A DNA stretch of 64,000 bases from Candidatus Omnitrophota bacterium (GTDB taxonomy: Bacteria > Omnitrophota > Gorgyraeia > Zapsychrales > JBAZNR01). The translations under genes were made by a program, and so were the position numbers. The notes under the pieces were generated by a model. That model had not been told where the DNA came from. It did not search any database and saw nothing but the letters and a program-made list of their open reading frames with translations. Positions 1-64,000 of the stretch are shown one piece after another. The stretch is from assembly GCA_041649175.1 (NCBI GenBank), contig JBAZNR010000001.1, forward strand, positions 322,332-386,331, read 5' to 3'. Numbering within the stretch: the stretch's first letter is position 1; each line of letters opens with the position of its first letter.

Positions 1-3000
1 CAATCTCCCGGTTTTCCTAAAGATTCAGGAAGGCCGTTGATGACAACCTCTGAGAAATTTGTCCCTAAATAATCTTTGCCGGCTTCTCTTAAAACACCAA
101 TTCTTTCCGCGGGAACTTTTTTTGATATTCCCGAAACATAAAGGCTGAAACTATCGCGCAGTCTGGTTTTTTCTAAATCCAAATTAAGTCTTTTAGCGCG
201 CTTGATAACACCTGCCCTGGTTAAATTAAGCCGGTCGGATAATTCCACCACATGCGGCAGGCGCTTTTCTTTTGAGGCGGCTATCTCTCTTTTGATCTTT
301 AAATAAGTATCGATAAGATCCACATCGTCTTCTTTAGTCAGCACAATATTTAATACCTTAGCGCGGTGCTGGGTCCACGTTATGGATTGATTTGTCCTTC
401 TTGCTAATTCGATTTTTGTCGGAGCTCTTTGATAAATTTGAATGAGCTCTTGATAAACAGCCCTTAAAACATCATCAGTGATTTCGGTCGTGAAAAGGCC
501 GCTGGTTACGTTTCTTGACTTATTCGCTGCGGCGTTTTCTGCGTTTACTGTTCCCCAGAAAAATGATCCAAACAATAAACCGCCCGCAAAAGCATTCAAA
601 TCAGTTTGATTGCTTTCTTTTTTTGGTTCAGATAAAAGCCCTTTTTTGCGCCCAGAGCTCGGACGTAATTCTGCCGCAACCCATGATCTCTTAGGCTGGA
701 GCATTTGATATCTTTGATAAACAATTTCCGCCGCTCTTGTCGCGTACCTAAACCAGAAATGATTGGCAACAGAATTGGTGTGTGCTAAAGAAGCTCCGAT
801 GTCAGGATGAGTCAACATTGATACTTTTCGTTTAAGTCTTTTAATATAATCTTCTTCCATCTCATGTAGCTCATCCGGGTTAATACCAAAAACACGGCAC
901 GCGATTTTATAATTATTCGGCTGATCCCCCAGGTTCCCAGGGGCTTGGTTGTAAAGATCAGGTTTCTCTCTCCTTAGAGCAGCAAGGCTACCGGCTTTCT
1001 TTAAGGCATCATTGATCAAGCCACAGATAGATGTTTTGACAAGCCTTTGAGCATTTTCAGTATTTTGATGCCTTTGCGTCTTTTGTTCGTAATATTTAAT
1101 TGATTTACTTAACTGCGAAAAGAGATACTGATTTTTCTGAATATGTTCACGGACTGCCCCCTGATGGCTAAGCTTAAGCATTTTACCGGCTTTTGCTTGA
1201 TTACCGTTATTCAACCGTAAGGCCGCGTAAATAACCATAGATTTGAATATCTTTACGGGAGGATAGAATGGAAAATCGAAAATCGCAGCATCTCCGGCTA
1301 TCGATTGTCTGTCAATTCCGTGCTTTCTTTTTAGAGCATCTCGATAGCTCTGATCTCCGCCCAGAATAATATCCGCTTCTTTATCTCTCCACGTTCGTTT
1401 CAGTACGGTAAGAATATACAAATACTCGATTTCTTCCCAAGAAGAACCCGCGCGCATAGCTTCTTGTAGTGTTGTAATCATAGTGGATATTTTAGCAGCA
1501 GGCTTTTTAAGAAGCATATATGTGGTCATGGTGCGGGCAAAAACGCTTTTTATCTCCTGCAATGATCTCTCTAATTTAGAAAATTCCATTTTTCCGTCAT
1601 TTATAAATTCATAAACTGTTTCTTTGTTTATGCCGAGTATCTGAGTAGATTTTTCTTTATTGTTCTTTGACAAAAGCAAAGCCGTATAAACAGAGAATAG
1701 TTTTAAAGTATGGACTGTCGGGAAGAAAGGCAAGTCAAGGTTAATAAGGCCTGACGGAACAGATTGATGAGTAAGCTGATACTTCCTCATGCTTTTTGCT
1801 AACGTATCCTGTTCTTGCATCCCTAACACAGCTCTAGCGTTTCCTTCATGCCATTTGTAAAATTGCAGAACATGGTAAATATATGACCGTTCGATCTCTG
1901 CCCATTTATGCTGGGCCAACAGGTCTTCCAAACGCTTCACCAAAGCTCTTCTTTGCTGGATAGAAATATTATCAAAATCAGATATTGCTTGAGAAACTTC
2001 TGTTGGGCTGTTTTCCACACTTCCCCATAAAATCGGCAAGATGGACGGAATAATAAAGGCATTAAGCGTTTTTTGCTTAGATAGGGACGGAATATTTTCT
2101 CTTACCGGTAAAGGCCAGCCGTGCTTTTCAAATTCGGCAATAATTTCAGCGCGGCGATTGTAATAAACGACCTTAAACGTCGAATTGATCATGCGGGCAA
2201 GTTCTTCCCAGGAAATCGGTTGCCAATCTTTTCGCGGAGTAGATTCGTAATAAGCATCCACTTCTCTCACCAATTGCTCCATCGAGAAAAATTGAAAAAC
2301 AATTTTTAATCCGTCATTGAGTTTTCCGCGCAGCGACGCGCTACCTGGGCTCATCGCTAATTGCTCAGCCAGGCGAATATTATTCCTATCCTTATCGATG
2401 ATATCTACTTTAAGATTTTTTAACCTTTGTACTTGCGTTAAATGATCCTGCAATTGAGCGAGTAAGCGATTTTTTATTTCTCTTACCTTGCCCTCTCGAA
2501 GGCTTAACACAATACCAACTTCGTCATAGCTCCACTCTTTACCGTTTTTGGTCCCTATTCCGTAAAGCAAGAAAAGGATGAGCCGCGACCGAGGATCTTT
2601 TAAAGAAAAAATAACACGCAAGAAAAGATCATTTTGCTGATCAACAATAAGCCATCTCTTTTCCGCGGCCACAGCGGCAATTTCGTTGAAATGTCGTTGA
2701 AGATCAGAAGCTTTAAATCCGGAATATTTTGAGAGAACTTCTAATGTCAAAGGAACACGCTGATCAGCGGGGATTTCTAGCAAGGCCTGTTCAACCCTTT
2801 GCGCAAAGGCTTCCCTTTCAAATTGAGGAACCGGGATAACCTTAACTTTAGGTTTCGGCGGATTATCTTCTTTTTTAGGTTCCCGTTTTACATTTGTGTT
2901 TTCTTCCTTGGGCCTCTTTACGGTAACGATTGCCAAAGGTTGGCGATTTTCTTTTCTGGGATTTTTTCTACCACGAGCCGCGCGCGAAGGCTTTACGATC

Positions 3001-6000: not shown

Positions 6001-9000
6001 ACAAAATTTTGCTGCGGCAAGATATCTGTGGCCTGTTTTTGCCCGTTGTGATCGGTATAATAAAATGCTTGATACTCCTCAGGAACATATTCTAGCGGCA
6101 TCATACCGGCAAAAATAGAATCGCCTAAGATCATGACCTGGATCTCCGAAGTTCCTACCAAAGACCAGCGTCCGGTTTGAAGCATCTGGTAAGTTACGCG
6201 CGATTCTAAAATCGGGTCACGGCTAATTAAGAGAACAACTTCTTTTTCTTTGGATACATTATTTTGGATAACATCACAATTCCACCGGGAACGTTCAATA
6301 AAGGGAAGTAAATTTTCGGCAATGAGGAATATATTTTTTCCTTGTTCTTCCTCGGCTAATTCCGATCCGGAGAAAACAATATTAAATTTCCTCAAGAATT
6401 TAACCACATCCGGCAAGGGATCGCTCAAGCTCACGGTAATTTTCTGCGCGTCGTCCGAAGAAAGCTTTCCGTAAGCCGCCAAATTCACCAAACGAACAAT
6501 GAGATTCTTTAACTTTCTAGAGATCGGTGAACGCAAATAATAACCGATGGTTCTCCACGCTGTTAGACGCTTATGTATTTCTTCTTCAGCCTTTTGGGCG
6601 TCTTTCTCCAGGCTATGCGCGACAAGAACAAGCCAATTTCTTAAACGCTGTGACAAGGTATCCAGGTATTCATCTTCTTCGACGAGCTGCCTCGAAAAGA
6701 TCGTTTGAGGATCATTTTTATCTTTCTGAAATAAACGCACGCCGTTTTCACCCGCCATCAAAAGACTTTCAGAAATCCCAAAATACCCTCTTTGCGGAAT
6801 ACTGTTTTGAACGGGGTGAGATGTAACGATCATATTGACTTCCCGCCCGGTCCTTCCAATAAAATGGATCTTGTCAATAAATCCCTCACGAGATTGAATG
6901 TCAGAGCGGATATCACCCATCAAAGGCGAATAAGCGTCAAACAAGGCTTTTAAAACAGGGGCTTTTAATGATTCGATGCGTCTTAGATCCCGTTCCATCA
7001 TATCCAAAGCGGTCACGCCGGAAAATCCCGCGTAATTAGCTTCCAAGACCGGGCCGCCATGAATAACTAAAATGCCCTGACGCCCGTAATGATAGATATA
7101 ATAATGTTCTTTCATCCAGGCAAACATTTCCTGCATCAAGGGATCTTGCCGGAAATTTTCCATAGTCAAAGGCTCTTGGCCTTCTTGAAGCAAGGTTTGA
7201 TTATATTCTTCAAAAATAAATTTCCCACCGCCCATCGCAAACCAAACTTTCGTTAGCTGCTCGTGATCCATCATGGCCGCGATAAATTCAACTTCATTCG
7301 AACCATAAAGAAGAATAAGGGGAAGTCCGTCGACTTCTTTGTAATGGCGCAAAATTTGATAAATACGTAAATTTTCTTTTCCCTTGCCGAATATGTCCCC
7401 CGTTAAAACGATCTTGGTGGCGCCTTGCGCGAGCGCTTCCGCCATTAAAAGCTCTAAAAGTTCACCGTCGCCTTCAATATCGCCGATAAAAGCAGTACGG
7501 GGAACCTTGGAAGGTTTTCCACTTTTGTATTTCTCGATCTCACGGATAAGTTTTAATTTATTGCGGGCAAAGATCAGTTTCTTTATTTGAACCGCCAACT
7601 CCTCAATGCCGATGACCACCTGGGAACCGGAACGAGGGTCTTCATAAAAAAGCCCTTTAGCGGATTTAATGAGTTCCAACAGCGGCGGTAAAACAATAAG
7701 AAGCCCGTCTCTGGTATAAATTTCCCGGACACTTTTTGTAATATAATAATGATTTGCTTTTAGTTTTTTCTTCAACTCCCGAGCAATATCAATAAGTGTG
7801 CGCAAATGGTCGTGGGAAAATATTTTCTTATGCTTATCCATGTACACAGCCATTTGTTCCAATGTCTCATCCGAAAAGATAAGAAGCTTGGCCAATTTAG
7901 TCAAAAGGCCGAATATCTTAACCACATTTTTAGCCAACATGCGGTCTTGGCCGATGATTTCCCTGCTGTAGGCTAAAACCATTTCTTCAAAGATCAATTC
8001 CCAAACCTGTTCGGCGATCTCAACGGGCGGATGCGTTTTAGGGTCAGCTAAAGCCTCATGAAGAAGAACCACGCCGTCTTGCGGCGACTTATAAGCTAAG
8101 TGCTTAAGATCAGGGCTGAATTTGAAAATAGCTCCGTGAGCCATCTCATCTTTCAGCCGTTCTCTGATGACTGAAAATTCTTTTTCGTTTTGCCCTAAAA
8201 TTTCCGTAAGAAATTCTATGTAAACTTCTCCGTCGGCAATGATGTTGTCTCCTTGAAGCGTCAGGCTTCCGGGATGGCGGGCAAAGAAGTATCCGTTGAC
8301 CGTCCCAAAAATAAACGGAACGGAAAAGATCGGTAAGGCGGCAAATGAATTAAGCGTTTGATTTGATCTATGTTGCGGCTCTAAACGCACAACTCCGGGC
8401 TCATGAATAGATTGCACGCGCCGGCTGATGATCGTTTTATGTTTTAATCCGGCCTTTGTGAATAACGGTTCCCAAATAAATAATCGGTCCAAATAAATAG
8501 CAAAGATCCCATAGCCTTGAGATGAAAAATGTTTTGGCAATTGCTTTAAAATAGCCTGCATTTTTCTCTTAGAAATAAAATCGTTGTGGTTATTTGTCTT
8601 TCCATCGACCGGTTCCGGCGCATGCCAAATGATCACATCGTAAATACCCAGCCCACGCAAACTATTGTGTTTGAACACGCGAACGTTGTTTGTCAAGCCG
8701 TTATGCACAAGATTATGCCCCGTCAGCAAAATACTTTCTTCGGCAATATCGATCGCGTCTACCTGCTTGGCCCCGGCTAATATAGCGGCGATGACATCAA
8801 TGCCGTTTCCGGGCCCGATCACAAGAACTTTGCTTTCAGGCTTTAAAGTGCCCGGGATCTCTAGCGCGCGCACCATGCGCAGAGACTCAAAATGACGAAT
8901 ATCATCGGCAAAAACGATCGTCTGATAGATTCCGGGATAATTAAATACGGTTAGCTCACGGCCGAACATAGGGACAACGGAAGGCGATAAAAGGCTTGGA

Positions 9001-21000: not shown

Positions 21001-21719
21001 GTAACAATGATAGACTGGAATTTTCCGTCTTTAATATTGATGCCCAGTGTAAATAAATTGCTTTTCCCGTCCTGATCCTGCTTGGTCTGATAAAAATCAA
21101 TTTTGTAAGCATCAATGACCGCCAAAAGGTTTTCTAAAACTACCCCTTGCCCTAAGCGATGACGCAAAGCGCTTCTTATTTCTACCGTTATATCCGTCAT
21201 GAAGACAACTTTGACCGGACGGATCTTCTTTAAAGCAAGCTCCCAATCAAGTCTTGGATTTATTTTGTAACGTTCCTGGCTGAACAACAGAACCTCGATC
21301 GTATCCCTGAGGATATCTTGATGATCTGATAAATATTTAATGTCTTCTTGAATGATCTCTTCTTCGCTTAAATGGGGTTGAAGGATACGCGTTTTTTCAT
21401 GTTCGAGGAATCCTAAAACAGCGGCCGGGTGGTCTTTCATCAGCTCAAAAACTCTCCAGTGAATAAGCAAAGTCCCTTCGCTTTCGGAGACCATCATCGC
21501 CGGGCCGGGTAAAGCAACGATGACAATGCGAGTTAATTTCTTAGAAACAATAAGATTACCTAAGTATGGAACGATCTCTTCGACCTGCCCGTAGAGCTCT
21601 TCTTCTTCATCATGGGTGAGAAAGCCATTATGGATCTTAGAAATAAAAAACTTGCTCAGGACATTGGCAGATAAAAATACGGTGGGCCTTTCAATGGCGG
21701 CAAACTCGGCCGGATAAGC
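1..21719 (-). CDS. Segment C of the giant ORF: C-terminal side, 3' end beyond the window start. The first in-frame ATG is at 21495-21497, but protein-like sequence begins at 21719.
   Basis: Frame decoded at 57, 181, 541, 781, 2101-2340, 3181-3300, 7381, 8761, 9841, 10021, 10561, 12901, 15361, 20281-20460 and 21481-21719. Confidence 0.6.
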
Positions 21720-54700: not shown

Positions 54701-57700
54701 CATCTTCTACCTGGCCAGCCAAAGTAGACAGTTGCGCTTTCCAGTTCGAGTAAAATACTTTTTCTCTCTTAACCCCATACACATGAATAATAGACAGCGG
54801 TTTACCGCCATTTATTTCTTCTAATTTTTCTTTAAGCGGGCCGAGCCATTCCATATTTAAAAAACCAATCGGCAAAGAAACAAATAAGGCATAAAGTTTC
54901 CGCTGCGAAGACTGTTCAAATTGATCAGGATTAGCGGCTTTAACCATTCCAATAAAATGTTCCCTGCCAAGATCTCGTGACCGCAAGAAAGAAAGATCAA
55001 TGCGATTGTGGCTTATTCCGTTAAGTCCGTACAAGCGCAACAAGGCGTTGGCAATATTCATATATATCGAATTGTTAACTTGCCTAAATAACCAGCTTGA
55101 GTAAAGGTTTGTAACGACGTCAACGGCGATCACTTCAACCGCGGCTTCCAAATTTTGACTTTCCGGTGCAATATTCATTAGTTTTCGTAAGCCAGCTAAA
55201 ACACGTCCTAATTGTTGCTCGATGACCTCATGCTCCTGGATAAATTCTCCGGCAACATCTCTCATGTCGGCTTCGTTGTAATGCTTAACTCGGTAAACGG
55301 TATTGCCGTCTTCGCCTAAGATCATGGTCGTATTAAGTTTAAGCATAAGCTCGACGATGTCTTTTAAGCTTTTGAGTTCAATATTGCGTAAGAATTCTAC
55401 GAAGATCCGGCGAACCGCAAAATTATTTTTCAGGTAATTTTTTTGATTTTCCGTTTTTGGAAAAGGATGTTCCTCTGGGTATCTGACCATCTCAACCCAA
55501 GGAGATACCAGGCTATAAGTCCAATTTAATTGGGCGACAAAACCGAAAACTCCAGAAATACCAAATCCCGGGACAAAGGCATTGATTGGGCTCGCTCCTT
55601 GAACATCTTCCCCGTTTTCATCGAAGGCGATCCGAATTAATCTTGCTTCTGTGTCTATAAAAACAACATCATTTCTATAACGGATACTGCCATTGACCTT
55701 TGCGTACAGCCGTTCGGCTTCTTGATCATGATGATTATGGCGCGCGATAGCCGCCAAGATCTCAATTTCGCTTCTGTGGCGTTCGTTAAACTTCTCATCA
55801 TCAGAATTTCCAAAGCGCTTCAAATATTCGGATAAAAATTCTAAGATATTCTTCGCGCGAGTCGTTCCGACAACTTCCGCCATACCGCTTAATAACCAGC
55901 CGACATAATCATATATATTGCTGTACGGCTGTTCATCATCTTCCAAGGAAACCGAACTATAATCCAAAAGCACAATAAGAAATTCGAGTTTTTCTGTTTC
56001 CTGCAAATTAAACATGATGCTGGGATCTAAAACTAAACGATTAAAGTTAAAGTCCATCCAAACCTTATCGGTTGTTGGCATATTCGCTAAATAATAACCG
56101 TCAAACTCTCCTGATAACATGGCTAATCTCATCCAAGCCTCGGCGTAATGAACGATCATCATCTTAATATTGAGAGGATTACGATGGGTAAATTGCGCCG
56201 GATATTGATACAACATTTGTAAATTGGAAAATCCGTTGCGGCTTTCATGCAGATAAATTCCGGTATTGTTTTCTAATGTAAAAGCACCTGGCTTAAGGAA
56301 AAATCGATAACCTAAACGATGCTCTTCATTGACCGCTTCAATGGTTTCAAAAAGGCGAGAAATATCCTCGGCTGGCATGGCAAGTTGCTGCTTGGAAATC
56401 GCATAAATACCTAAATGATAAACCTTCATTCTGTTCTGGTAAGGCAATTTGGCCGTTAACGATAAGGGGAGCTTTCCTTCTTCTCGGGCAACGCGCTCCA
56501 TACGAGCAAGTGATTCACTGCCTTCGGTAGCCGACTGCACGGTGATAACAGCGCCTTCGGGGATTTGTCCGTCAGATAAGATCTCTTTAATGAAATGATC
56601 ATCACTAAAAACATTGAGAAGCGCTCGGGCTAAAAAGTTTGTTTCGCCTAATTGGCTGGATAAAGCGCGGCGCACGCGGTTACGGATAGGCGCGGGGATA
56701 AAATTGTTAGGATCAATAAATTGAAGGCCTCTAAAATCAAATGTGGATTCTTGCGAGAAAACGGTTCCCCATATTCCAAAAAATAAAAACATAAGAGGCG
56801 CAAACGAATGAAGTTTTTGAGTTTTTTCTCTGTATCCGACGGCACCAGTATTGTCTAAAGCGCTTTCAAATAATAATCCGTATTTTTGGATCATAACCGC
56901 AATGTCAACTTTTTGATGCGCGCCGATAAAAGCTTGTTTCATTCCATCGATCCATAACGTTGACCGGCCTGCATGGTATTGACGATATGAAGTTATTGCT
57001 TCTGTTAAATGTTGGGCTAATTGCAACATACCTTGTTCTTCGAAGGTGCGAATGATATTTCCGTCCCCGGATTCAAAGCGGCGGACAACATCTTCAAAAT
57101 TCCATCCCTTGAACACATCTAAAAACCATCCTGTTTGACCGTGAATAATATATTCAAGCGGCCCGCCGGTAGCTGTTGCGATATTGTAATGGCCATTAAA
57201 AGCCGCACGCTGGTCGCTGGTGCCGCAGGCTTCTCTGGTGGGGCGCGGCATACTGACCCAAACATCACTGGCGGCAATAGCCTTTTGCATAAAATCAATG
57301 CCGCTTTCGGAAACGAAAACAAATTTACCCTTTAGTGCGGGATCTTCCATCATGGACCTGAATTGCCAAACCCAATGACGCCCGATATCATCCAAGCCGC
57401 GCCCGCCGATAAGAACATTAGCCCCTAATCCCGGTTTTTCTCCCCACGGCGTTTGATACATTTGATCGGGCTCCCCGGTGATCCATTTGATCAGAGGAAT
57501 GATGATGCCTTGTTCTTTGTAAGCCACTAAACGGCGCACCAAACCGACCAAAGGACGGCTTGTGTCGTTAAAGGTGAATTCTGCGCCAAAATTTTCACTC
57601 ATAAAATCATTAAGGACGCTCTTTTGTCTTTGACCGATCTCAAAGAGTTTTTGTCCGGAAATATTTTCTAAAGAATCCAGCTCTTTAACATATTCTCTTA

Positions 57701-60700
57701 AATCGCCGGAATACCAAAGGGTGGGGTCTGAGCCGTTAACGATCCCGACGATCTTTTCTTTAAATTCTGGGAGGACAACGATCTTTGTGATTTCGGCGTG
57801 TTCTTCGGCAACGCCGTTGATGACATTGGCCATGCGCGCCAAACCAATAGCCGCGTGGGCAACATAACCATCGGCAACAACTTCTCTGGCTCCATCCCAA
57901 TCGCGGATCAGATCCGGCCCTAATAAGGTTTTAAGCCACTGGGCCGGCCAAGAAGGAAGCGCCGCGCGTTCGGGAGTGTGAGTAGTCATTACAATTTTTG
58001 TTTTATCAAAAATACTTTTCTGGTTTTGGCTATTGAACCAGTCAATATCATTTTTCATAGCGGTCGCCACAAAAACCAATTGTGGTTCATTGAGCCGCGC
58101 GACATTGGGGTGGATCTCTAATTGCTTCATTAATTCCACATAGGCGCGGGCAAAAAAGCCGAATTGGCGCGTCTGGCGTTCATCGCCGGGATACAGGCGG
58201 TTGAAGATAGAATCTTCGCCTAAATGGCGGATCAAGAATATCGGAATACCATTACGATTGATCCAATAAACCTGTACGGTATTATGCGGATGATGATTGA
58301 AATCAACACTAAAGGTAAGCGGCACGAGTTGATTGCGGTTATCTAAGATCACCACCGGTTTGATGCCGGATTCATTTTGCCAATTGATCTGGACACGGCT
58401 TCCCTGCGCGTCGTAATAACCTTCGTAAAGCGGCATCACGCCGATAGCGGAGAATTTTTTCAAGAGATGATATGCACCCCAGGTTTCGCCGGTTAAAAAT
58501 CCAAGCCCGCCGGCGGCTAGGGCTTTTTGAGCCAGGCCTTTTAATTCCGGTAAGAAGGCTTCCAGGGAAACATCGGTCACGATCGGTTTGCCGGATGTTC
58601 TGATGCTATTTAACATCGGCCCCAGCGTGTCATCGGCGATAACAAAACCAAATATTCCAAATCCAAAAAAGCTTGGAGTAAAACTGAAAAGTCCCGTTCT
58701 TTCGCCTGTGGATAACTCATTAGGGACGTTTCTGTTCTGTATCTCAGAACTGTCCCTTTGAGCTATAGCCTGTGAATTCGGGGACAGTTCTGAGCGCTGC
58801 GGCAGAAACGTCCCTAAATCTAAAATAGACCGTATTAATGATTTGCCCGTAATGCGTTTAATGGCCGGCCCGTCTGTTTTTATGGAACAGCCCAGTAATT
58901 CTGATAAATGGAAGAATGTTTGAATACCAATTAATATTTTGAGAGAAACTGAATTAACAAAGAATATCGTGATGCCGCCGGCAACAAAAAGGAAGTGAGT
59001 GGCCAGCGGCGCAAATAACACAATGAGGCGTTGAGAATCAGTCGCACGTTCGCTTCTGTGGTGCCGCACATTATATCGGCTCATCAACCATGCCGGAATG
59101 ATGTGCATCAAGGCATGAATAACGGGAACGCTAAACGTAGTAGCGGCAACAACGGCGCTCATCATGGTGATGCGCGATAAATCCAACGCTATTCCAATGT
59201 TATCTTCGATTTTTAACGCGATGAAAGAAGCAAAAATAGAGTAAACGAAGTATAGTAAAGACCCAAAGCCGATATCTTGTTTCTGCCAGTAATGATCACT
59301 GATAAATCCATTTTTGTTAAGCCCTAAGAGCTGACTTTTAATATATTTGAATATGTTTTGGATTCCCAAGCCAAAAACAATCGGGCCAAAAGCGAAAAGC
59401 TTTGAAGTGCGTCCGACTTCTGCCGTAACTTTCTCAACTAGATTTTTTTGCTCAACGGAGACAACGCCGAAACGCTCGGAAGAGTTCGGGATCCAGCCAT
59501 GAGAAAAATCAGTTGTCACGACAACCGTTGGAGTTTTGACTAAGTAAGCGGCGTGAACAATAGCTGTATCGATGGTCACCACTTGGTTAACTTGGCGTAA
59601 AAGCTCAATAGTGGCCGCGCGGCTTTCCCAGTCGGTGTTGACTTGGCGGCTGATATCCCAAAGCTTTACGTTAGGGTGTTGCGAAAATCCTTCGATCAAA
59701 TATCTTAAACGCGCCGAAACCACATTTTCAATATTGGTATTAACGATCACCGTGAAGCCTTTTTGCAAAAGCTGTTCAATGATCCCGGCCCAATTTTGCC
59801 TGGATGAATCTTCGGATGATGTACTAGCTAAGAAGTTAACGAAAATAACCGGCGATGTAGAGGAAATACTGTTTCCGGTAAAGAAATCCCGAACGATTTT
59901 CTGAGTTTGAGAGAAGCTCGGCAGAATATCTGTTTCGCTGGGAAGCTCAAATCCATATTCTAATAAAGCGGCGCGAATACCCACATGAGCATCTAATCTG
60001 CCCCATGTTTGACCGCTTAAAATATTGATCACATTACCGCCGTAAATATCAATGCCATGCATATTGATAACCATGTCGTACAACGGGAAGATCACGTCAC
60101 GTAATGTCGATATCTGATAAAGGCTAGGCATATCAAGCTGGGCAAAACGAGCTGTCTTGTGATCGTTTAATTCTCGATAGGGATCCTCCATGCCGTTTAA
60201 ACTCAAGGCAAAGATGCTCAAATTCTCTAAATTCGGGAAATTATGCGAAAGTGTTTTTGCGATGATCGGTAAGTAAGCCAACATCTTTCCCCATGTTCCG
60301 GTCCCGGCATAAATGAAGACTCTTTTTACTTTTGAGAAATCTAAGCTTCGCACTTCTTCTGCTCTCGGCGTTAAATCTCCGTTATTGAATAATGATTGGG
60401 ATCTGGAATCTCCCTGCGTCGCTACAAAGCCAAAAACCGCCACAGGAACAAACGCGAAGCTGTGAAGAGCGCTGACACTAGAATTTGAAATAAAGGCTGC
60501 TGCCGGGTGATTCCCCAATCCAGCCACGGAAAGATTGGAATCATTTTTATTCGCCGGCAGCAGCCCAATATTTTTATTCGCTAAACGCCATACGCTATAC
60601 GCTGAGCCTTTAACTCTGTCCCCTATTTTTACAAACCAATCTCTAAGCAAAGAAACGATTCCGGAAATTCCTAACCCCAGCACAAACGCGGCGAGGTTTT

Positions 60701-63700
60701 GGCCGGAGTTTTGATCGGAACCCTTAGAGCTCTTGGGATCAAATTTGACCATAGGAACAATTTGTATCTGCGCTTCCATACCTTCGGATTCAACCAGTCG
60801 ACCTTGATCATTAACAAACAATCCTGCCTCTTTCGCAAACATTAACCCGGCACCAAAATCATCACCGTTTTGAAGAAGAGCGCGCACCGTATCAATATGT
60901 TCTTGCGTGGTCAGCGTATTCGGATCGATCTTCTCTTCTTTTAAGTAATTAATCACCCAATCGCCTAATTTTTCTATGATCAAAGCACGGATTTGAACGT
61001 CGGTGAGCTCGCGGATCTTTTGAGTTTCTTGGGTCTTTTGGGTTGATTGGGTCTCTTGAGTTCTTTGGGTCTTCGTCATATCCCAAAGACTACGTAGCCT
61101 AATATAAGCAAAGAATGCTCCCAGGCCAATCAGCGTTGAAGCAAAGATCGTGACAAGCAAAGTAAGAAGAACGGTTCCGACAACAATATCCAAAGCCAAT
61201 TTAGATACGAATTTGATCGTTTTGACGGCAAAGTTTTTAACACCCTTCCAACCGAACTTGCGGTAAACAATAGCACTCACGACAATCGTTGCCATTATTT
61301 TCGCGACGGCCAGACTAAAAATGATCGGATGGGACGCAACAAAACTTTCCACAAATCCTTTAAGATTTAAGAATAATCCGGCTAACATAGCGATCGTCGC
61401 CGCAACAATTGTTGTCGGGTCAAAAAATCCTCGATCACTTCTAGAATGATAATGTTTCATGCGATAACTAAGCGTCACACTCGGCAACATAGCCGTCGCG
61501 AGAGTTAAAATCGCAACGCCCGCGCCCACGTAAAGCACGATGGGTGAACTTTCGATAACGTAAAATCCGAACGTAAATATCGTCGCCACAAACCCGATCA
61601 TAAATGTCTTGGCGGCAAACTTGTGATTGTGATGACGGCGTTTCCAGGCAGATTTTAAATTTGATTTAGCAATGATCATCGCTATCGTCAGCGCGAGAGA
61701 AGCCGCGATCACAATCTTCATTCCTAAAAGAACATTATCTTCATTGCTCAACAAACCGTTTAAGGAAGATGTTAATCCGCCAAAAATTCCCAGAACCGGC
61801 ATAAACGTGAACGCGTTGAGAGCAATTTTTTTGGTGAGTTCACGTTCTAAAGCGGCGATGACCGTATTGATCATGGCGTTGGCTTCTTCTATTTCTTCAC
61901 GGGTCGTAAGTCTGCCTACCGCGTGGAATTCGGCAGAATCATATTTATTTTCAAAAGTTTCAAAGGCGGCGATCGTTTTAGAGTCGTTGATAAGTTTTTT
62001 CATGACGATCAGGCCAATTTTTCCAAAAACCAGAGACCACCAGCCGCGCTGAGCCTTATAGTTAACGCCATCGGTGCTATGAACAACACTATTGGGAAGC
62101 TCATCACGGTAATCGCTTTTCAGTTTTTTCAAATCAACAATGGCTTTTTCAATGGAAGATTGCCGCTCCTGAGCCAAGATACGCCCAAGGGATTTTTGTA
62201 ATGTTTTAATGTCTTTTTCGATAGCGTCATGAAGAGGAAATGTCGTTATGCCGTTTGACCTTACGGGAATACTTAAAGCTCTCCGGGCTGATTTTTGTAA
62301 TTGCTCAATGGATCGTTCGATATCTTCCCGGCCGGCTTTCGCGGCAATGACTTTGACGACTGTTTCACGTAAACTTACATCATCTAAAATTTGAATAATA
62401 TATACGATAGCCTGATGAGTGCCAAATTCACCTAAAGCTTCAATGGTATCAAGCTTAAACTTTTGTTCTTTTTCTTTTCTTAATAATTGCTTTCCTAAGA
62501 TCTCAATAGCTTTTTCGCCTAAAATCACTTGAACCGCTTTAGCCTCGCCGTGGCGCCTTAAGAAACGCACTTGCCAAGGCGTTGGAGTTTTTATTCCATA
62601 GGATTTGAGAATAATGCGTGCCAAAACTTTTTCATTTTTGATCTCTTTATAATTAATAACCCAGGCCAAAGCCACCACGGCTAACGAAAGCGCGAGTGTT
62701 TTAAAGCCGTCTGAACTTAAAATTCCGTTAAGATCCATCATCGCCAAAACGGGCATGAATGTAAACGCATTAAGAGAAACCCGCCCGCCGTTGGCACGCA
62801 AATCGGCCACTTCTTTCATTAGCGCTTCGTGGAATTCCGCAACCAATTTATGATCTGAGGTAGAATACAATCGTGATGTTGCGGCGATCACTTGCCTTAT
62901 CGTCGTATAGCGAGAAATAGTTACGAAGATATTGTGAACTTCCTGGGCTACTTCGCCGGGGCGAAGTTCACGAGCGTGTTGGCCAAGAATGCCTTTGGTT
63001 AAAATATAGTCCAGGTCAATATTCAGGATAATGCCTTCGGTAAAATTAGGCGCATTGCCGCGCATGACCGCTTCTAAGTCGCTGGAAACGGCCGACCAAT
63101 GGTCCATATCTTCGGAAAGGACTATGCGGCCGTGCTTGGGATAAATCCAATACACATTGCCGACCAAATTAAATCTGAGTAAGAATCCTATCCAATTGCC
63201 GCAGTCGATCTCTACGGCGCGGCTATTGGTTAAAATCCCGATAATATGCGTATCATCGCTATGATAATCAAGAAGGACATGCGGTAAATGATTGGAGATC
63301 ACGCCTTGACGGATAGCCTGCTTGATGACAGAAAACGTTCCGCCGTGATCATCAAAAATATCGAACGGGATACGAGAGGCAGTTGCAGGCTGATTCCCCA
63401 ATCCAGCCACGGAAAGATTGGAACCATTTTTAGATGCCTGCAACTGCCCAATTCGATTATTTTTTAAATTAGTTTTTCCATTTTTATTCGCGGCATTACG
63501 CGCGAGGACGATCAAGATCCCTAATGCAAAACCAAAAGCGGCCGGAATAAAGATAAAAGCTTCCTCTTGCCCTTGTTTGCCGAAATCCTTATGAACATCT
63601 TCCACAAACACCACTGTATACATCCAAGAGTTGCCGGGGCCAAAATCGCGGGAAAGACGCACCAACCCTTGTTGTTCTAATCTTTCTAAAGTTTTCTGCA

Positions 63701-64000
63701 TACCAACATTGTCGTATTCGGTCGATACGGTCATTCTGTTCTTTTTATTAACCTGAAGGAAGCTGATATATTCTTTGACCAAGGCAAGGCCGATTCCGGA
63801 TTTACGATATTCTTTTCGTACGGCAATAAAGTTAAGCTGAGCCTCATCATCCGTCAATAAATACACCAAATAACCGGCAACTTCCTTGCCGTTTTTGGCT
63901 AGAATAAAATTCATTTCAAAAGAAGCTTCGCTGGTAAGTTGAGCATCAGCCCATTCCGTTAACATTCCGTTCCAGTCAAACATCTTTTCCGGCGCTATGC
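1..64000 (-). CDS. Interior of one giant minus-strand ORF (more than 21,000 codons in-window, both termini outside the window). It is a chimeric chain of enzyme- and regulator-like modules, locally frame-disrupted at 21720-21900 and 58742-58801.
   Basis: About 60 hand-decoded 60-nt blocks between 57 and 63960 are all in the same frame (plus-strand codon start divisible by 3), protein-like and stop-free. Contiguous decodes include 31501-33300, 50041-50250 and 21481-21720. Module junctions at 541-600, 20341-20460, 29761-29880 and 31501-31560 have no stop, no ATG and no RBS. The other two minus-strand frames are full of stops. Confidence 0.8.
150..240 (-). other. HTH segment (sigma region 4-like), the last recognisable module before the window start.
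   Basis: Decoded SDRLNLTRAGVIKRAKRLNL at 181-240. NFSEVVINGLPESLGKPGD at 2-58 runs out of the window. Confidence 0.35.
540..602 (-). repeat. Conserved hydrophobic junction motif (protein-level repeat), instance DLNAFAGGLLFGSFFWGTVNA.
   Basis: Decoded codon by codon. Consensus over at least 45 instances: L-[NS]-[AS]-F-x-[GP]-[FL]-x-[PF]-x-x-F-G-x-V. Confidence 0.8.
780..960 (-). other. J-domain (DnaJ-like, HPD motif).
   Basis: Decoded RLKRKVSMLTHPDIGASLAH at 781-840. Manual translation of the preceding residues gives NYYKIARAVFGINPDELHEMEEDYIK. Confidence 0.5.
3100..3985 (-). other. Module: sigma-70 family factor domain (regions 2-4).
   Basis: Decoded ENPKEHWYLEDIAGIFELTKERVRQIVGKKTKELGVKFKKF at 3181-3300 (region 4.2 HTH). 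Region 2-like LTPEEE and TINWIRHRVHDL...RTIRIP blocks upstream are from manual translation, with AINAAKTILGKPVHNL decoded at 3901-3960. Confidence 0.6.
6600..7600 (-). other. Module: PPP-family (calcineurin-like) metallophosphatase.
   Basis: Decoded AQGATKIVLTGDIFGKGK (GDxxDRG-type block) at 7377-7430. Manual translation adds FIGDIEGD upstream and LYGSNEVE downstream (GNHE-like). Confidence 0.5.
8400..8900 (-). other. Module: SAM-dependent methyltransferase (PrmA-like GxGxG fold).
   Basis: Decoded ESKVLVIGPGNGID at 8796-8838. Confidence 0.45.
9000..9950 (-). other. Module: inositol monophosphatase / CysQ / FBPase-family phosphatase-like.
   Basis: Decoded NFGHTNFIWVIDPIDGT (IMPase motif W-[IV]-D-P-[IL]-D-G-T) at 9846-9896. 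Confidence 0.6.
10300..11000 (-). other. Module: HD-domain segment (SpoT-type metal-dependent hydrolase motif).
   Basis: Decoded AVALLHDVLEDY at 10570-10605. Confidence 0.45.
12900..13010 (-). other. HTH segment, sigma-70 region 4-like.
   Basis: Decoded DGQPWSREQIAKYLDV and VSPQRINQIISIFEKPLKAAM at 12903-13008. Confidence 0.4.
14300..16600 (-). other. Module: TPR-like helical repeat region.
   Basis: Decoded GVVYTVGICFQETGHRKEALA at 15361-15420. Nucleotide periodicity and manual translation suggest repeated A-x-x-x-Y-x-x-A-L-x-L-x-P helix pairs. Weak. Confidence 0.3.
20368..20427 (-). repeat. Junction motif instance QLNAFIGGLIPLAFGLVDPS.
   Basis: Decoded at 20341-20460 with flanks YYVDGFKKPADA / KENDLKARVESALEILFERKERLTRGNIA and no stop. 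Confidence 0.8.
21720..21900 (-). other. Frame-disrupted segment 1. About 60 codons read cleanly only in the frame whose codons start at plus coordinates with remainder 2 mod 3. The main frame has 8 stops here (21720, 21735, 21753, 21795, 21813, 21822, 21846, 21897).
   Basis: The shifted frame gives GEETLKALADILKRFIEDNTALAWTYEGRDRRDAYEQEIRRLHRDSPQLELGTVPDLRGF, with no ATG and no stop between 21923 and 21722. The implied +1/-1 indels lie in short runs (minus-strand AAA at plus 21902-21904 and TTTAGG at plus 21719-21724). Confidence 0.7.
21736..21773. repeat. Palindromic element 1: a perfect 14-bp inverted repeat (cagggacagtcccc / ggggactgtccctg) with a 10-nt loop, inside frame-disrupted segment 1.
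   Basis: Read directly. Left arm 21736-21749, right arm 21760-21773. No U-tract follows on either strand. Confidence 0.85.
21897..58742 (-). CDS. Segment B of the giant ORF (about 12,000 codons). The first in-frame ATG after the upstream stop is at 58614-58616, but coding clearly continues from 58740, so the true start is uncertain. It ends at a TGA at 21897-21899.
   Basis: Same frame decoded at many points between 22441 and 58740. The plus-strand triplet 'tca' at 21897-21899 reads TGA on the minus strand. Confidence 0.6.
22965..25400 (-). other. Module beginning with a lipoprotein-like signal peptide (RRKFLQQFAVIVALAAVSGPLLEGCSKK); remainder unassigned.
   Basis: Decoded KFLQQFAVIVALAAVSGPLL and LEGCSKKNPTEPQEEEPLTP at 25262-25380. 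Confidence 0.45.
27495..29080 (-). other. prs: Module: ribose-phosphate pyrophosphokinase (PRPP synthetase, Prs)-like.
   Basis: Decoded VIIVLDDIISTGGTM (PRPP-binding site) at 27690-27750. Manual translation also gives RRFPDGEVEV... and ...VFMPYFAYARQ (the Prs RFSDGE and PYFGYARQ-type blocks). Confidence 0.65.
29082..29160 (-). repeat. Junction motif instance GSISLLNAVIPSFGMVIGYLAKLIKGLLG. Its 3' 30 nt are identical to 29763-29792.
   Basis: Decoded. The DNA string caatcctttgatgagcttcgctaaatatcc occurs at 29082-29111 and again at 29763-29792. Confidence 0.8.
29763..29850 (-). repeat. Junction motif instance QLTALNAVIPTFGMMVGYLAKLIKGLLG (duplicate of the one above).
   Basis: Decoded at 29761-29880. 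Confidence 0.8.
29830..31475 (-). other. Module: polytopic membrane segment of unknown function.
   Basis: Decoded DVAEQELNAFTFGFILPFALFGLVNS at 31475-31555. Manual translation of the remainder shows multiple hydrophobic stretches down to AAAVYVQILSQQQLFIEGNH (30061-30120, decoded). Confidence 0.4.
31550..33320 (-). other. aceK: Module: isocitrate dehydrogenase kinase/phosphatase (AceK)-like.
   Basis: Thirty consecutive lines (31501-33300) were decoded with no stop. They include ...YRDKRAYMIGRI... and the C-terminal ...GRVCCYDYDEIDSILNYNFRDKPKPQDDWESMMDESEWISVSDGDVFPSEL..., which closely resembles the AceK C-terminal region of E. coli ([25 protein letters not shown]...PWYSVSPGDVFPEEF). Confidence 0.65.
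34500..35435 (-). other. Module: L-asparaginase / GatD-like amidohydrolase.
   Basis: Decoded PRPAGIVLTHGTDT at 35103-35145 (asparaginase hinge motif). The upstream VIVLNAGGTINMAGE (TGGTIAG-type) is from manual translation. Confidence 0.55.
37410..39075 (-). other. gpmI: Module: cofactor-independent phosphoglycerate mutase (iPGM, GpmI-like).
   Basis: Decoded QGPLLFIIMDGVGLGS at 38962-39009 (iPGM N-terminal block) and NGITIVTADHGNADEM at 37640-37690 (iPGM C-terminal ADHGN block). Confidence 0.7.
42170..43560 (-). other. Module: tandem LOG-family (Rossmann-fold nucleotide-binding, PpnN/YgdH-like) domains.
   Basis: Decoded LIFFPGGMGTMDMLFEA (the LOG PGGxGTxxE motif) at 42395-42445. An upstream half with GGGPGVMEAG comes from manual translation. 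Confidence 0.55.
46930..47740 (-). other. Module: class I SAM-dependent methyltransferase-like, paralog 1 of 5.
   Basis: Manual translation gives KVLIVGVGRG...FEYHSIN...DLIIMGYCVLSYIPDQ...LLRPGGYLF. HHYVM was decoded at 47325-47340. Paralogs lie at 45420-46185, 44600-45365, 39140-39915 and 36440-37345. Confidence 0.45.
47800..50165 (-). other. Module: receptor-like Hanks-type Ser/Thr protein kinase. An N-terminal domain and a TM segment precede a kinase core at about 48450-49250.
   Basis: Decoded AGWVHGDIKPDNI (catalytic loop HGDxKPxN) at 48675-48710 and IVDFGLSVRKGRPMKGG (DFG) at 48605-48655. Confidence 0.7.
50200..51440 (-). other. Module: secreted-type beta-rich protein ending in a T9SS (Por) C-terminal sorting domain. 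The CTD spans about 50200-50459.
   Basis: Decoded QNYPNPFNG at 50432-50459, the canonical start of the T9SS CTD. Then ...ASGIYFYRLESDQGVSEAKKMQLL, running with no stop into the next module: HSMIFPVFGLVALGMV (50165-50215), EGVLNFDELIKQGWTVYRSGKNTILF (50041-50160). Confidence 0.7.
51520..53825 (-). other. Module: RelA/SpoT homolog, long-form (p)ppGpp synthetase/hydrolase (HD, synthetase, TGS, ACT).
   Basis: Decoded TIIAGLLHSWHISE (HD-domain LLHD-type block) at 53535-53578. The synthetase-like (...GYYAIHVDF...) and C-terminal ACT-like (...IEGIVTVDIERPQ...) segments come from manual translation and were not all re-verified. Confidence 0.5.
56830..58640 (-). other. Module: alpha-glucan (glycogen/maltodextrin) phosphorylase, GT35-like.
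   Basis: Decoded DVWVSMPRPTREACGTSD at 57215-57270, which resembles the GT35 PLP-site block R-P-x-x-E-A-S-G-T-S-x-M-K. The Lys position reads Q here (EACGTSDQR). The remainder is from manual translation. Confidence 0.55.
58722..58815. repeat. Palindromic element 2: a nested hairpin. Outer 13-bp stem agggacgtttctg / cagaaacgtccct (58722-58734 / 58803-58815), inner 12-bp stem cagaactgtccc / gggacagttctg (58744-58755 / 58780-58791), 24-nt apical loop. It shares the GGGACAGT/ACTGTCCC core with element 1.
   Basis: Read directly. A frame TGA at 58743-58745 sits at the foot of the inner stem. Codons 58742-58801 read only in the shifted frame (PQRSELSPNSQAIAQRDSSE), and the main frame resumes at 58740 (EQNRNVPNELSTGERTGLFSF). 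Confidence 0.85.
58743..64000 (-). CDS. Segment A of the giant ORF as a strict gene caller would see it: N-terminal side, 5' end beyond the window, ending at an in-frame TGA at 58743-58745 inside palindromic element 2.
   Basis: The frame is open from 63960 down to 58746. The plus-strand triplet 'tca' at 58743-58745 reads TGA on the minus strand. Confidence 0.6.
58830..59345 (-). other. Module: membrane fatty-acid hydroxylase / sterol desaturase superfamily-like (His-box enzyme).
   Basis: Decoded PVIHALMHI (H-x3-H) at about 59105-59130 and IPAWLMSRYNVRHHRSERA (H-x-H-H) at 59045-59100. Flanking segments are hydrophobic. Confidence 0.5.
59400..60420 (-). other. Module: glycosyltransferase family 9 (ADP-heptose:LPS heptosyltransferase)-like.
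   Basis: Decoded HGIDIYGGNVINILSGQTWG (60001-60060) and VTIDTAIVHAAYLVKTPT (59540-59595), which resembles the GT9 motif T-x-D-S-G-x-x-H-L-A-A-A-x-G-x-P. The rest comes from continuous manual translation. Confidence 0.45.
60508..60548. repeat. 41-nt DNA repeat copy B.
   Basis: See copy A. Confidence 0.8.
61021..61075 (-). repeat. Short in-frame tandem repeat encoding a T/Q-rich run (TKTQRTQETQSTQKTQETQK).
   Basis: Plus strand reads gagtttcttgggtcttttgggttgattgggtctcttgagttctttgggtcttcg, with a period of about 9-12 nt. Confidence 0.6.
63391..63431. repeat. 41-nt DNA repeat copy A (tgattccccaatccagccacggaaagattggaaccattttt), encoding ...SNLSVAGLGNQPA.
   Basis: A 40/41-identical copy lies at 60508-60548 (...SNLSVAGLGNHPA). 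Confidence 0.8.
63560..64000 (-). other. Module: GNAT-family N-acetyltransferase-like, C-terminal part (start beyond the window).
   Basis: Decoded ...NFIAVRKEYRKSGIGLALVKEY... at 63790-63870 (GNAT motif A, R/Q-x-x-G-x-G/A) and TEWADAQLTSEASFEMNFIL at 63901-63960. Confidence 0.5.

Follow-up and report, generated by a model that had tools for sequence, protein, structure and literature searches.

The 64,000-nucleotide stretch of DNA analyzed here (positions 322,332 to 386,331 of contig JBAZNR010000001.1 in assembly GCA_041649175.1, from a Candidatus Omnitrophota bacterium; hereafter, the window) is occupied from end to end by one stop-free reading frame on its minus strand, and the data support the view that it is an internal slice of a single enormous gene of at least 21,332 codons. 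Complete enzymes of many families lie along this frame, and a short, hydrophobic peptide that we term the junction recurs between them. We consider the best explanation overall, with a probability of about 0.7, to be that the gene encodes one giant multi-enzyme polypeptide, that its modules are bracketed by junctions, and that it belongs to the class of multi-enzyme giants described from Omnitrophota.

A Single Reading Frame Is Open across the Window

Six-frame translation of the whole window revealed no TAA, TAG, or TGA among the 21,332 codons of the minus-strand frame in which the low coordinates of codons are divisible by 3. The first full codon of this frame is plus 63998-63996 and the last is plus 5-3. 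The other five frames contain 943, 1480, 1000, 1228, and 1643 stops, and the longest stop-free run in any of them is 90–160 codons; at that density of stops, a run of 21,332 open codons would arise by chance with a probability of ~1e-419 or lower. GC content by codon position shows the same order in every 1,000-codon block (GC1 ~0.50–0.55 > GC3 ~0.37–0.47 > GC2 ~0.33–0.40), and this uniformity indicates that one frame is coding from end to end. The first-pass annotation had proposed one stop-free frame over the full 64 kb, and with it one giant gene, more than 21,000 codons long, continuing past both edges. Both proposals held up, because stops are absent, the coding signal is uniform, and protein-family matches occur all along the frame; we detected neither in-frame stops nor any switch of frame between stretches.

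The same annotation had placed main-frame stops in two palindromic stretches, at 21720-21899 and 58743-58745, and this part was mistaken: the codon at 58743-58745 is GAG, and 21720-21899 translates cleanly. The absence of the claimed stops strengthens the single-frame observation. The palindromes themselves are real. They form the two strongest local hairpins of the window (Table 1), both of which lie in inter-domain linkers and are read through in frame, and an 8-mer (GGGACAGT/ACTGTCCC) is common to both. They could serve in mRNA processing (for example, by RNase III) or in pausing, or they could be palindromes that were inserted in frame.

Almost nothing speaks for an artifact, whether a frame open by chance, a chimeric assembly, or several genes of an operon mistaken for one. 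Openness by chance has the very low probability given above, the coding statistics are uniform, and the junction motif is maintained at the peptide level over the whole length; furthermore, stop codons are wholly absent between modules, and ribosomes therefore cannot terminate there. We give this explanation practically no credence. Scans for tRNAs and Rfam RNAs found none in the window.

The Product Is a Nonrepetitive Mosaic of Complete Proteins

Modules were called by scanning the translated frame with Pfam and NCBIfam profiles, and NCBI curated cutoffs were applied where they are quoted. The scans revealed a nonrepetitive mosaic of differing, complete, cytoplasmic-type proteins, with roughly half of the sequence unmatched by Pfam. 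Four modules scored above the curated cutoffs: isocitrate dehydrogenase kinase/phosphatase (AceK), cofactor-independent phosphoglycerate mutase (iPGM), phosphoribosyl pyrophosphate (PRPP) synthetase, and LOG/TIGR00730. At least six modules are S-adenosylmethionine (SAM) methyltransferases.

Over its full length, the AceK module can be aligned with the E. coli enzyme (PDB 3EPS, 2.7e-101), and it retains the Lys, Asp, and Asn motifs of the kinase. The iPGM module likewise matches the trypanosomatid enzyme from one end to the other (PDB 3NVL, 6.5e-172, 575 bits; solved bacterial iPGMs, ~346 bits) and retains the serine of GNSEVGH and the metal ligands. By these scores, the embedded iPGM appears to be of the plant/trypanosomatid type, and much closer to that type than to the solved bacterial iPGMs. 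Judged from their sequences, the AceK, iPGM, PRPP synthetase, and LOG modules are complete and apparently functional.

The translated fragment has a mass of 2.42 MDa and an ordinary globular composition apart from its cysteine content. Cysteine is strikingly rare (24 of 21,332 residues, 0.11%), despite the presence of many enzyme families that normally contain it.

Length alone would suggest a conventional giant gene, encoding either a repeat-built adhesin or a nonribosomal peptide synthetase/polyketide synthase (NRPS/PKS) megasynthase. Self-BLAST showed little internal paralogy, confined mainly to four methyltransferase modules (31%–41% identity), and Tandem Repeats Finder (TRF) reported only two trivial arrays in the 64 kb. 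Tandem repeats of one family (of the Ig, cadherin, TSP3, dockerin, or NHL type) were not found by self-BLAST, TRF, or Pfam, and the Pfam and NCBIfam scans of the window contained no Ig, cadherin, haemagglutinin, condensation, adenylation, ketosynthase (KS), acyltransferase (AT), or carrier-protein domain. With no tandem repeats, almost no paralogy, and none of the expected domains, a gene of either kind is refuted for the 64 kb examined.

The ORF does contain short DNA direct repeats (60494-60585 with 63377-63468, and 29071-29144 with 29752-29825; 74–92 nt, 80%–86% identity), which correspond to duplicated peptides (amino acids [aa] 153–207 with 1103–1168, and 11376–11416 with 11606–11643, respectively). 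These indicate some relatively recent local duplication.

A Hydrophobic Junction Motif Recurs along the Chain

A hydropathy scan of the ORF yielded 51 peaks, made up of about 33 junction motifs together with several clusters of conventional transmembrane (TM)-like helices (2–7 helices each). Many of the peaks have one sequence pattern in common: a polar stretch, L-N-[A/S]-F, 7–13 hydrophobic residues (often including Pro), [F/W]-G-x-V, and a second polar stretch. A hidden Markov model (HMM) built from 20 seeds identified 37 copies, 33 of them clear, with a mean spacing of 638 aa. A strict regular expression for the motif matched 20 times, compared with 0.06 matches expected in residue shuffles (in which the maximum was 1). 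The junction core has a median length of 17 aa and is uncharged; Phe accounts for 20% of it, Gly for 13%, and Pro for 6.6%. The flanks of the core are polar and show a slight excess of Lys and Arg on the N-terminal side (71 versus 50 over 33 copies), and they carry no strong or alternating positive-inside signal.

The codons at the conserved F, G, and V of the junction follow gene-wide usage, which indicates that the motif is conserved at the peptide level and rules out a DNA repeat or a recombination scar of the integron attC kind. Known sorting signals (PEP-CTERM, LPXTG, and GlyGly-CTERM) were also rejected: 10 junction peptides gave no match to an NCBIfam sorting-signal model even at E<=10. 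No basic cluster was found after the junction core. A small residue occupies the second position past the terminal V in 45% of junctions, compared with a background of 20%, giving a weak V-x-[A/S/G] pattern; on this sequence pattern, a classical signal-peptidase I site at the junctions is weakly supported.

Junctions Mark Module Boundaries

The positions of the junctions coincide with the ends of modules. AceK (aa 10234–10816; Pfam 10241–10808) is flanked by a junction that ends at residue 10226 and another that starts at 10819, and iPGM (aa 8328–8854) by junctions that end at 8308 and start at 8867. The methyltransferase paralogues each start right after a junction, HPr starts 6 residues past one, and a type IX secretion system (T9SS) C-terminal sorting domain ends at residue 4590, 3 residues before the junction that starts at 4594. 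Exactly one junction separates the methyltransferase at aa 5945–6190 from methyltransferase B (aa 6214–6478). Single junctions also lie between methyltransferase C and iPGM, between iPGM and methyltransferase D, and between the kinase and methyltransferase A, and HATPase_c likewise precedes methyltransferase C across exactly one junction. We conclude that junctions mark module boundaries.

The T9SS sorting domain and a look-alike of a twin-arginine translocation (Tat) signal with a lipobox both lie mid-chain, at module ends, where they could not act as terminal signals unless the chain were cut. By their sequences and positions, they are likely to be relics of whole-gene capture, and their survival mid-chain supports the proposal that modules entered the gene as whole genes. 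An AlphaFold model of the orphan module after the Tat/lipobox signal, predicted from the single sequence, had a predicted local distance difference test score (pLDDT) of 36 and was unusable.

Related Chains Carry Linkers of Their Own

We searched 1.84 billion representative proteins with HMMER, using as the query a 1,100 aa segment with four junctions, two methyltransferase modules, and a further module lying between them. Only 16 matches were obtained at E <= 1e-3, the best of which showed 37% identity over one module. A megablast search with 25 kb against plasmids and phages returned no match. When the methyltransferase alignment served as the query, no related locus was found in GTDB genomes or IMG/VR, and JGI metagenomes yielded only L001 (1-6492), the locus encoding P0004 (see below). 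By these searches, the gene appears to be essentially sequence-unique. Four of the matches are named, two from metagenome-assembled genomes (MAGs) of Candidatus Omnitrophota/Omnitrophica, one from a Chlamydiota MAG, and one from an "uncultured bacterium"; the phylum labels give a weak taxonomic signal toward Omnitrophota.

Several of the matching proteins are themselves multi-enzyme chains, each with its own short conserved linker: RSELR in P0019 (4,590 aa, 7 copies), RS[ED][LIV]R in P0006 (6,658 aa, 11 copies), and [AT]SSP in P0004 (1,745 aa, 9 copies). These linker motifs are mutually exclusive among the three proteins, and all three are absent from the window ORF. The junction motif may be private to this gene, and the sequences hint at a general design rule in which each multi-enzyme chain of this class would use a private linker. 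P0019, P0006, P0004, and the Chlamydiota MAG protein (P0002) resemble the window ORF in having a special methyltransferase family in common with it (25%–42% identity) and in being strings of GT5, PEP-utilizing, and methyltransferase modules with a short linker motif kept within each protein. These chains are, however, 5–10 times shorter, and their linkers are hydrophilic (RSELR, ASSP), whereas that of the window is hydrophobic.

Membrane Tethering, Membrane Crossing, or Cleavage

According to our preferred reading, the gene would be translated as one polypeptide with a length of at least 21,332 aa and a mass of at least 2.4 MDa. The chain would resemble a string of beads, with at least 35 independent, mostly unrelated complete modules, many of them ATP-, SAM-, or PRPP-using enzymes of cytoplasmic type. 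Each module would be bracketed by an uncharged junction of about 17 residues, and multi-helix TM clusters would be interspersed among the modules. Together, the junctions and TM clusters would keep the chain attached to the cytoplasmic membrane, where its enzymes would form a tethered array. The majority of junctions would dip into the bilayer without crossing it, and neighboring cofactor-dependent modules would thereby stay on one side. The junctions would also be the natural candidate points of proteolytic processing, if the protein is cut.

Alternatively, every junction may be a true membrane-spanning helix, in which case the chain would weave in and out and about half of the modules would be exposed on the outside of the cell, where they would serve as effectors directed at a host or prey. 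An extracellular role is the one favored for such giants in the literature, and published DeepTMHMM surveys report about one TM helix per 370–950 aa and conclude that large parts of these giants are extracellular. In favor of spanning, the junctions lack charges and are hydrophobic, and the internal T9SS domain and lipoprotein signal hint that some modules are extracytoplasmic. Three features favor junctions that do not cross. The core, with its median of 17 aa and its Gly and Pro content, is short for a helix that spans the bilayer; the flanks lack an alternating positive-inside pattern; and SAM- and ATP-dependent neighbors sit one junction apart, so that strict alternation would put such modules on both sides of the membrane and strand cofactor-dependent enzymes outside the cell. 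We regard the spanning arrangement as improbable.

The main rival to a tethered array is a bacterial polyprotein, in which the chain would be cut at or next to each junction (by an intramembrane, signal-peptidase-like, or dedicated protease) to free about 35 enzymes. This reading is partly compatible with our own, as the two agree up to the point of cleavage. It would account for the completeness and natural-looking termini of the modules, and for the presence of two signals that function solely at a free terminus, the T9SS sorting domain (C terminus) and the Tat/lipobox signal (N terminus); these signals may, however, be vestigial relics. The hydrophilic private linkers of the relatives (RSELR, RS[ED][LIV]R, and [AT]SSP) look more like protease sites than like anchors, and cleavage by C39/S8 peptidases is proposed by West-Roberts (2023; 10.1101/2023.11.21.568195). 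The V-x-[A/S/G] pattern after the junction points in the same direction, but as a −3/−1 pattern it is weak and is missing from about half of the junctions. Pfam scans of the 21,332 aa found no protease or SecA domain. A polyprotein is a serious possibility, although not one that we would expect to prove correct.

A more far-reaching proposal is that the junction is a dedicated processing and sorting signal. The gene would then encode a true polyprotein in which at least ~35 captured enzymes are produced from one message of more than 64 kb and are cut or anchored at a private linker that coevolves with its cognate protease or insertase; the relatives, with linkers of their own, would make this a general rule for the class. 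We consider this rather unlikely.

Several points weigh against our overall explanation. The membrane association and the non-spanning topology of the junctions are predictions from sequence, and published DeepTMHMM readings treat such segments as true TM helices. An AlphaFold model of a methyltransferase with its two flanking junctions, made from a four-sequence alignment, had a mean pLDDT of 56, with values below 50 in the junctions. Searches of GTDB genomes, JGI metagenomes, and IMG/VR, both with an exact 51-mer taken from where the window starts and with peptide patterns of the methyltransferase family, found no close relative, and the junction motif of the window occurs in 0 of the 19 distantly related proteins that we fetched. 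In addition, the Pfam scans of this 64 kb slice found no SecA_DEAD, C39/S8 peptidase, HEAT, or NUDIX domain, all of which are reported to be typical of Archaeovorins of full length, the Omnitrophota giants discussed below.

Giant multi-enzyme ORFs are among the least understood of bacterial gene products, with regard both to whether each works as a single molecule or is cleaved and to the side of the membrane on which their enzymes lie. The window adds a sequence-unique giant with unusually well-preserved housekeeping enzymes (AceK, iPGM, and PRPP synthetase). In comparison with the accessible text of the literature cited here, two things are added: a motif, the junction, that explicitly delimits modules and is a candidate signal for processing or anchoring, and the hint of a private linker in each related multi-enzyme chain. 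The words "linker" and "junction," and any junction motif, are absent from the preprints of West-Roberts (2023) and of Nielsen and Lui (2026; 10.64898/2026.06.07.730766). The motif supplies candidate module boundaries, and possibly processing sites, of the kind that West-Roberts (2023) reports as lacking, and it makes it easy to divide such proteins up when their structures are to be predicted.

Features of the Window

The coordinates of the modules, junctions, TM-like clusters, and hairpins are collected in Table 1. Small helix-turn-helix (HTH) modules (sigma-70 region 4, Fis-type HTH_8, and HTH_24) occur in the C-terminal quarter, in window positions 597-3992 and 10788-13400 (aa ~16980–17025, 20468–20517, ~20920–20945, and ~21250–21272). 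HTH modules of DNA-binding type are unexpected in a protein that is presumed to be tethered to the membrane.

Table 1. Features of the minus-strand ORF. Positions are plus-strand coordinates of the window; amino acid numbers refer to the translated frame.
Feature	Position	Strand	Amino acids	Evidence
Single stop-free frame, 21,332 codons, ~2.42 MDa, open at both window edges	3..63998	-		Six-frame translation
Junction LNGFAGLLMPFGFWATV, immediately upstream of AceK	33321..33371	-		HMM, coordinate table
Junction LNAFTFGFILPFALFGLV, immediately downstream of AceK	31491..31544	-		HMM
Junction LQGFVVPFIFAPLAFIGSV, between methyltransferase C and iPGM	39075..39131	-		HMM
Junction LNAFLLPSFFAFFGFV, between iPGM and methyltransferase D	37353..37400	-		HMM
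Junction ISSCACFVPLFLFGTV, sole hydrophobic segment between two SAM methyltransferase modules	45360..45407	-		Hydropathy, HMM
Junction LNAFAGGLLFGSFFWGTV, most C-terminal copy in window	546..599	-		HMM
Other strict junctions, 1–9 of 27	61773-61847, 60423-60467, 58641-58679, 56760-56813, 55536-55586, 53817-53867, 50169-50219, 47739-47789, 46869-46919	-		
Other strict junctions, 10–18 of 27	46179-46241, 44544-44591, 42105-42152, 39918-39974, 35442-35492, 27432-27476, 26460-26504, 25953-25997, 22884-22952	-		
Other strict junctions, 19–27 of 27	22152-22205, 20376-20423, 17514-17561, 16563-16613, 13398-13457, 8298-8354, 5175-5219, 3990-4028, 2016-2066	-		
GNAT acetyltransferase module	63678..63923	-	26–107	PF00583, 1e-10
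Cluster of ~5–6 transmembrane-like helices	61143..61727	-	758–952	Hydropathy scan
GT-B module like alpha-glucan phosphorylase and glycogen synthase	56880..58520	-	1827–2373	TIGR02094 3.2e-23, PF08323 4.6e-6; PDB 9l6i
RelA/SpoT-like HD module	52398..53636	-	3455–3867	TIGR00691 2.2e-9, PF13328
Internal T9SS C-terminal sorting domain	50229..50453	-	4516–4590	PF18962 2.2e-9, TIGR04183 above cutoff
Ser/Thr protein-kinase-like module	48483..48938	-		PF00069 1.6e-10
SAM methyltransferase paralogue A	46929..47738	-	5421–5690	Pfam scan, self-BLAST
Class I methyltransferase module	45429..46166	-	5945–6190	PF08241 stretch; matches P0003 and P0010
SAM methyltransferase paralogue B	44565..45359	-	6214–6478	Self-BLAST
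LOG/TIGR00730 Rossmann module	42825..43328	-	6891–7058	TIGR00730 112.9 bits (cutoff 96.35); PF03641 7.9e-39
Second LOG-like stretch	42195-42461	-		
Histidine-kinase-type ATPase (HATPase_c) module	40095..40511	-		PF02518 1.5e-13
SAM methyltransferase paralogue C	39099..39917	-	8028–8300	Self-BLAST
iPGM, full length	37437..39017	-	8328–8854	TIGR01307 424 bits (cutoff 330.65)
SAM methyltransferase paralogue D	36354..37352	-	8883–9215	Self-BLAST
Type I asparaginase-like module	34827..35405	-		PF00710 7.5e-20
AceK, full length	31551..33299	-	10234–10816	NF002804 603.5 bits (cutoff 488)
Cluster of ~7 transmembrane-like helices	30825..31424	-	10859–11058	Hydropathy scan
Further transmembrane-like cluster	29502-29756	-		Hydropathy scan
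Ribose-phosphate diphosphokinase (PRPP synthetase) module	27516..28457	-	11848–12161	TIGR01251 150.6 bits (cutoff 113)
Internal Tat-type lipoprotein signal peptide look-alike SRRKFLQQFAVIVALAAVSGPLLEGC	25314..25397	-	12868–12895	Read from translation; SRRxFLK + lipobox consensus
HPr (PTS phosphocarrier) module, directly after a junction	21864..22136	-		PF00381 1.9e-4
TPR repeat region	14700..16337	-	15888–16433	PF13181, PF07719, related families
Second sigma-70 region-4-type HTH module	12930-13058	-		
Second RelA/SpoT-like HD module	10335..10790	-		TIGR00691 2.6e-7
Inositol monophosphatase/CysQ-like module	9402..10136	-		PF00459 2.5e-19
PrmA-like methyltransferase module	8616..8849	-		PF06325 4.4e-8
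Sigma-70 region-4-type HTH module	2448..2597	-		PF04545 4.9e-9
15-bp perfect-stem hairpin in ORF, linker after HPr	21737..21774	-		RNA dG -38.4 kcal/mol, z = -7.8
14-bp perfect-stem hairpin in ORF	58743..58794	-		dG -28.6

Comparison with Known Giant Proteins and Polyproteins

Giant repeat adhesins (such as the 36,805-aa protein of Chlorobium chlorochromatii) and NRPS/PKS megasynthases are, like the window ORF, among the longest prokaryotic ORFs. Adhesins consist of tandem repeats, and NRPS/PKS proteins consist of iterated catalytic and carrier modules; the window ORF has neither. Polyproteins of the flavivirus type offer an analogy, though not homology, in that one product contains several complete enzymes with internal hydrophobic signal or anchor segments between them. 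In those proteins, the hydrophobic segments both fix membrane topology and mark cleavage sites. Flavivirus-type polyproteins measure ~3,000 aa, and their proteases and cleavage sites have been demonstrated, whereas the window protein is at least seven times longer and is known from its sequence, with no protease in the window.

Kizina is said to have described Omnitrophota giant proteins of this class in 2022. For the LiM ORF of V. archaeovorus, which comprises 39,678 aa, 42 TM helices are predicted, and matching peptides have been observed (Seymour, 2023; PMC10066038). "Archaeovorins" reach 85,804 aa and combine numerous TM regions with GT5, methyltransferases, TPR, and glycolytic enzymes; most have SecA_DEAD domains and N-terminal C39/S8 peptidases, which were proposed to cleave the chain at points that are unknown, and this lack of cleavage points blocked analysis domain by domain (West-Roberts, 2023). 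Giants of up to 147,155 aa have since been reported, and a "multi-enzyme metabolic cluster" class (class 1) was defined, in which the commonest Pfam families are PF08241, PF02518, PF00583, HAD, HD, and PF08323; in these giants, TM helices recur about once every few hundred residues, and most of the giants are sequence singletons (Nielsen and Lui, 2026). In the same literature, Verrucomicrobiota proteins of at least 30 thousand aa (kaa) are reported, and nonrepetitive multi-enzyme ORFs of more than 20 kaa have so far come almost only from Omnitrophota. On sequence evidence alone, a gene of this architecture from some other lineage (another PVC phylum or a different episymbiotic group) would be a less likely alternative. 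The Chlamydiota match, the Verrucomicrobiota giants, the plant/trypanosomatid type of the iPGM module, and the lack of a relative among GTDB representative genomes point that way. Against it stand the two Omnitrophota labels among the three matches named to phylum, the close agreement of the domain repertoire with the published Omnitrophota catalogue, and the near restriction of such ORFs to that phylum.

The window ORF resembles the Archaeovorins and multi-enzyme giants of Omnitrophota in being a single ORF of tens of kilobases that is tiled without repetition by many Pfam families, none of which dominates. Giants of this class are single uninterrupted ORFs of more than 10–30 kaa, and the frame described here has at least 21,332 codons and is cut by both window ends. 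The class is further characterized by an N-terminal region with a signal peptide and/or a C39 or S8 peptidase domain and by neighboring genes for T2SS/T4P or pili and for glycoside hydrolases; here the ORF takes up the entire window, and its N terminus lies beyond the edge. PF08241, PF02518, PF00583, HD, PF08323 (GT5), and TPR, which are found in the Omnitrophota giants, are all present in the window, and embedded glycolytic or sugar-metabolism enzymes and large Pfam-dark stretches are likewise common to both. TM or hydrophobic segments recur every few hundred residues (in the window, as judged by hydropathy scan only), and hardly any similarity in sequence connects the ORF to other giants. 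The accessible text of the papers cited does not mention AceK, iPGM, PRPP synthetase, or an internal T9SS sorting domain for Omnitrophota giants. The agreement in length, in tiling by many Pfam families, in the signature families themselves, in how densely hydrophobic segments occur, and in the uniqueness of the sequence argues that the window ORF belongs to the Omnitrophota multi-enzyme giant class, a placement that forms part of the overall explanation and is covered by the probability given for it at the outset. Its size and content would then be remarkable but not categorically new.

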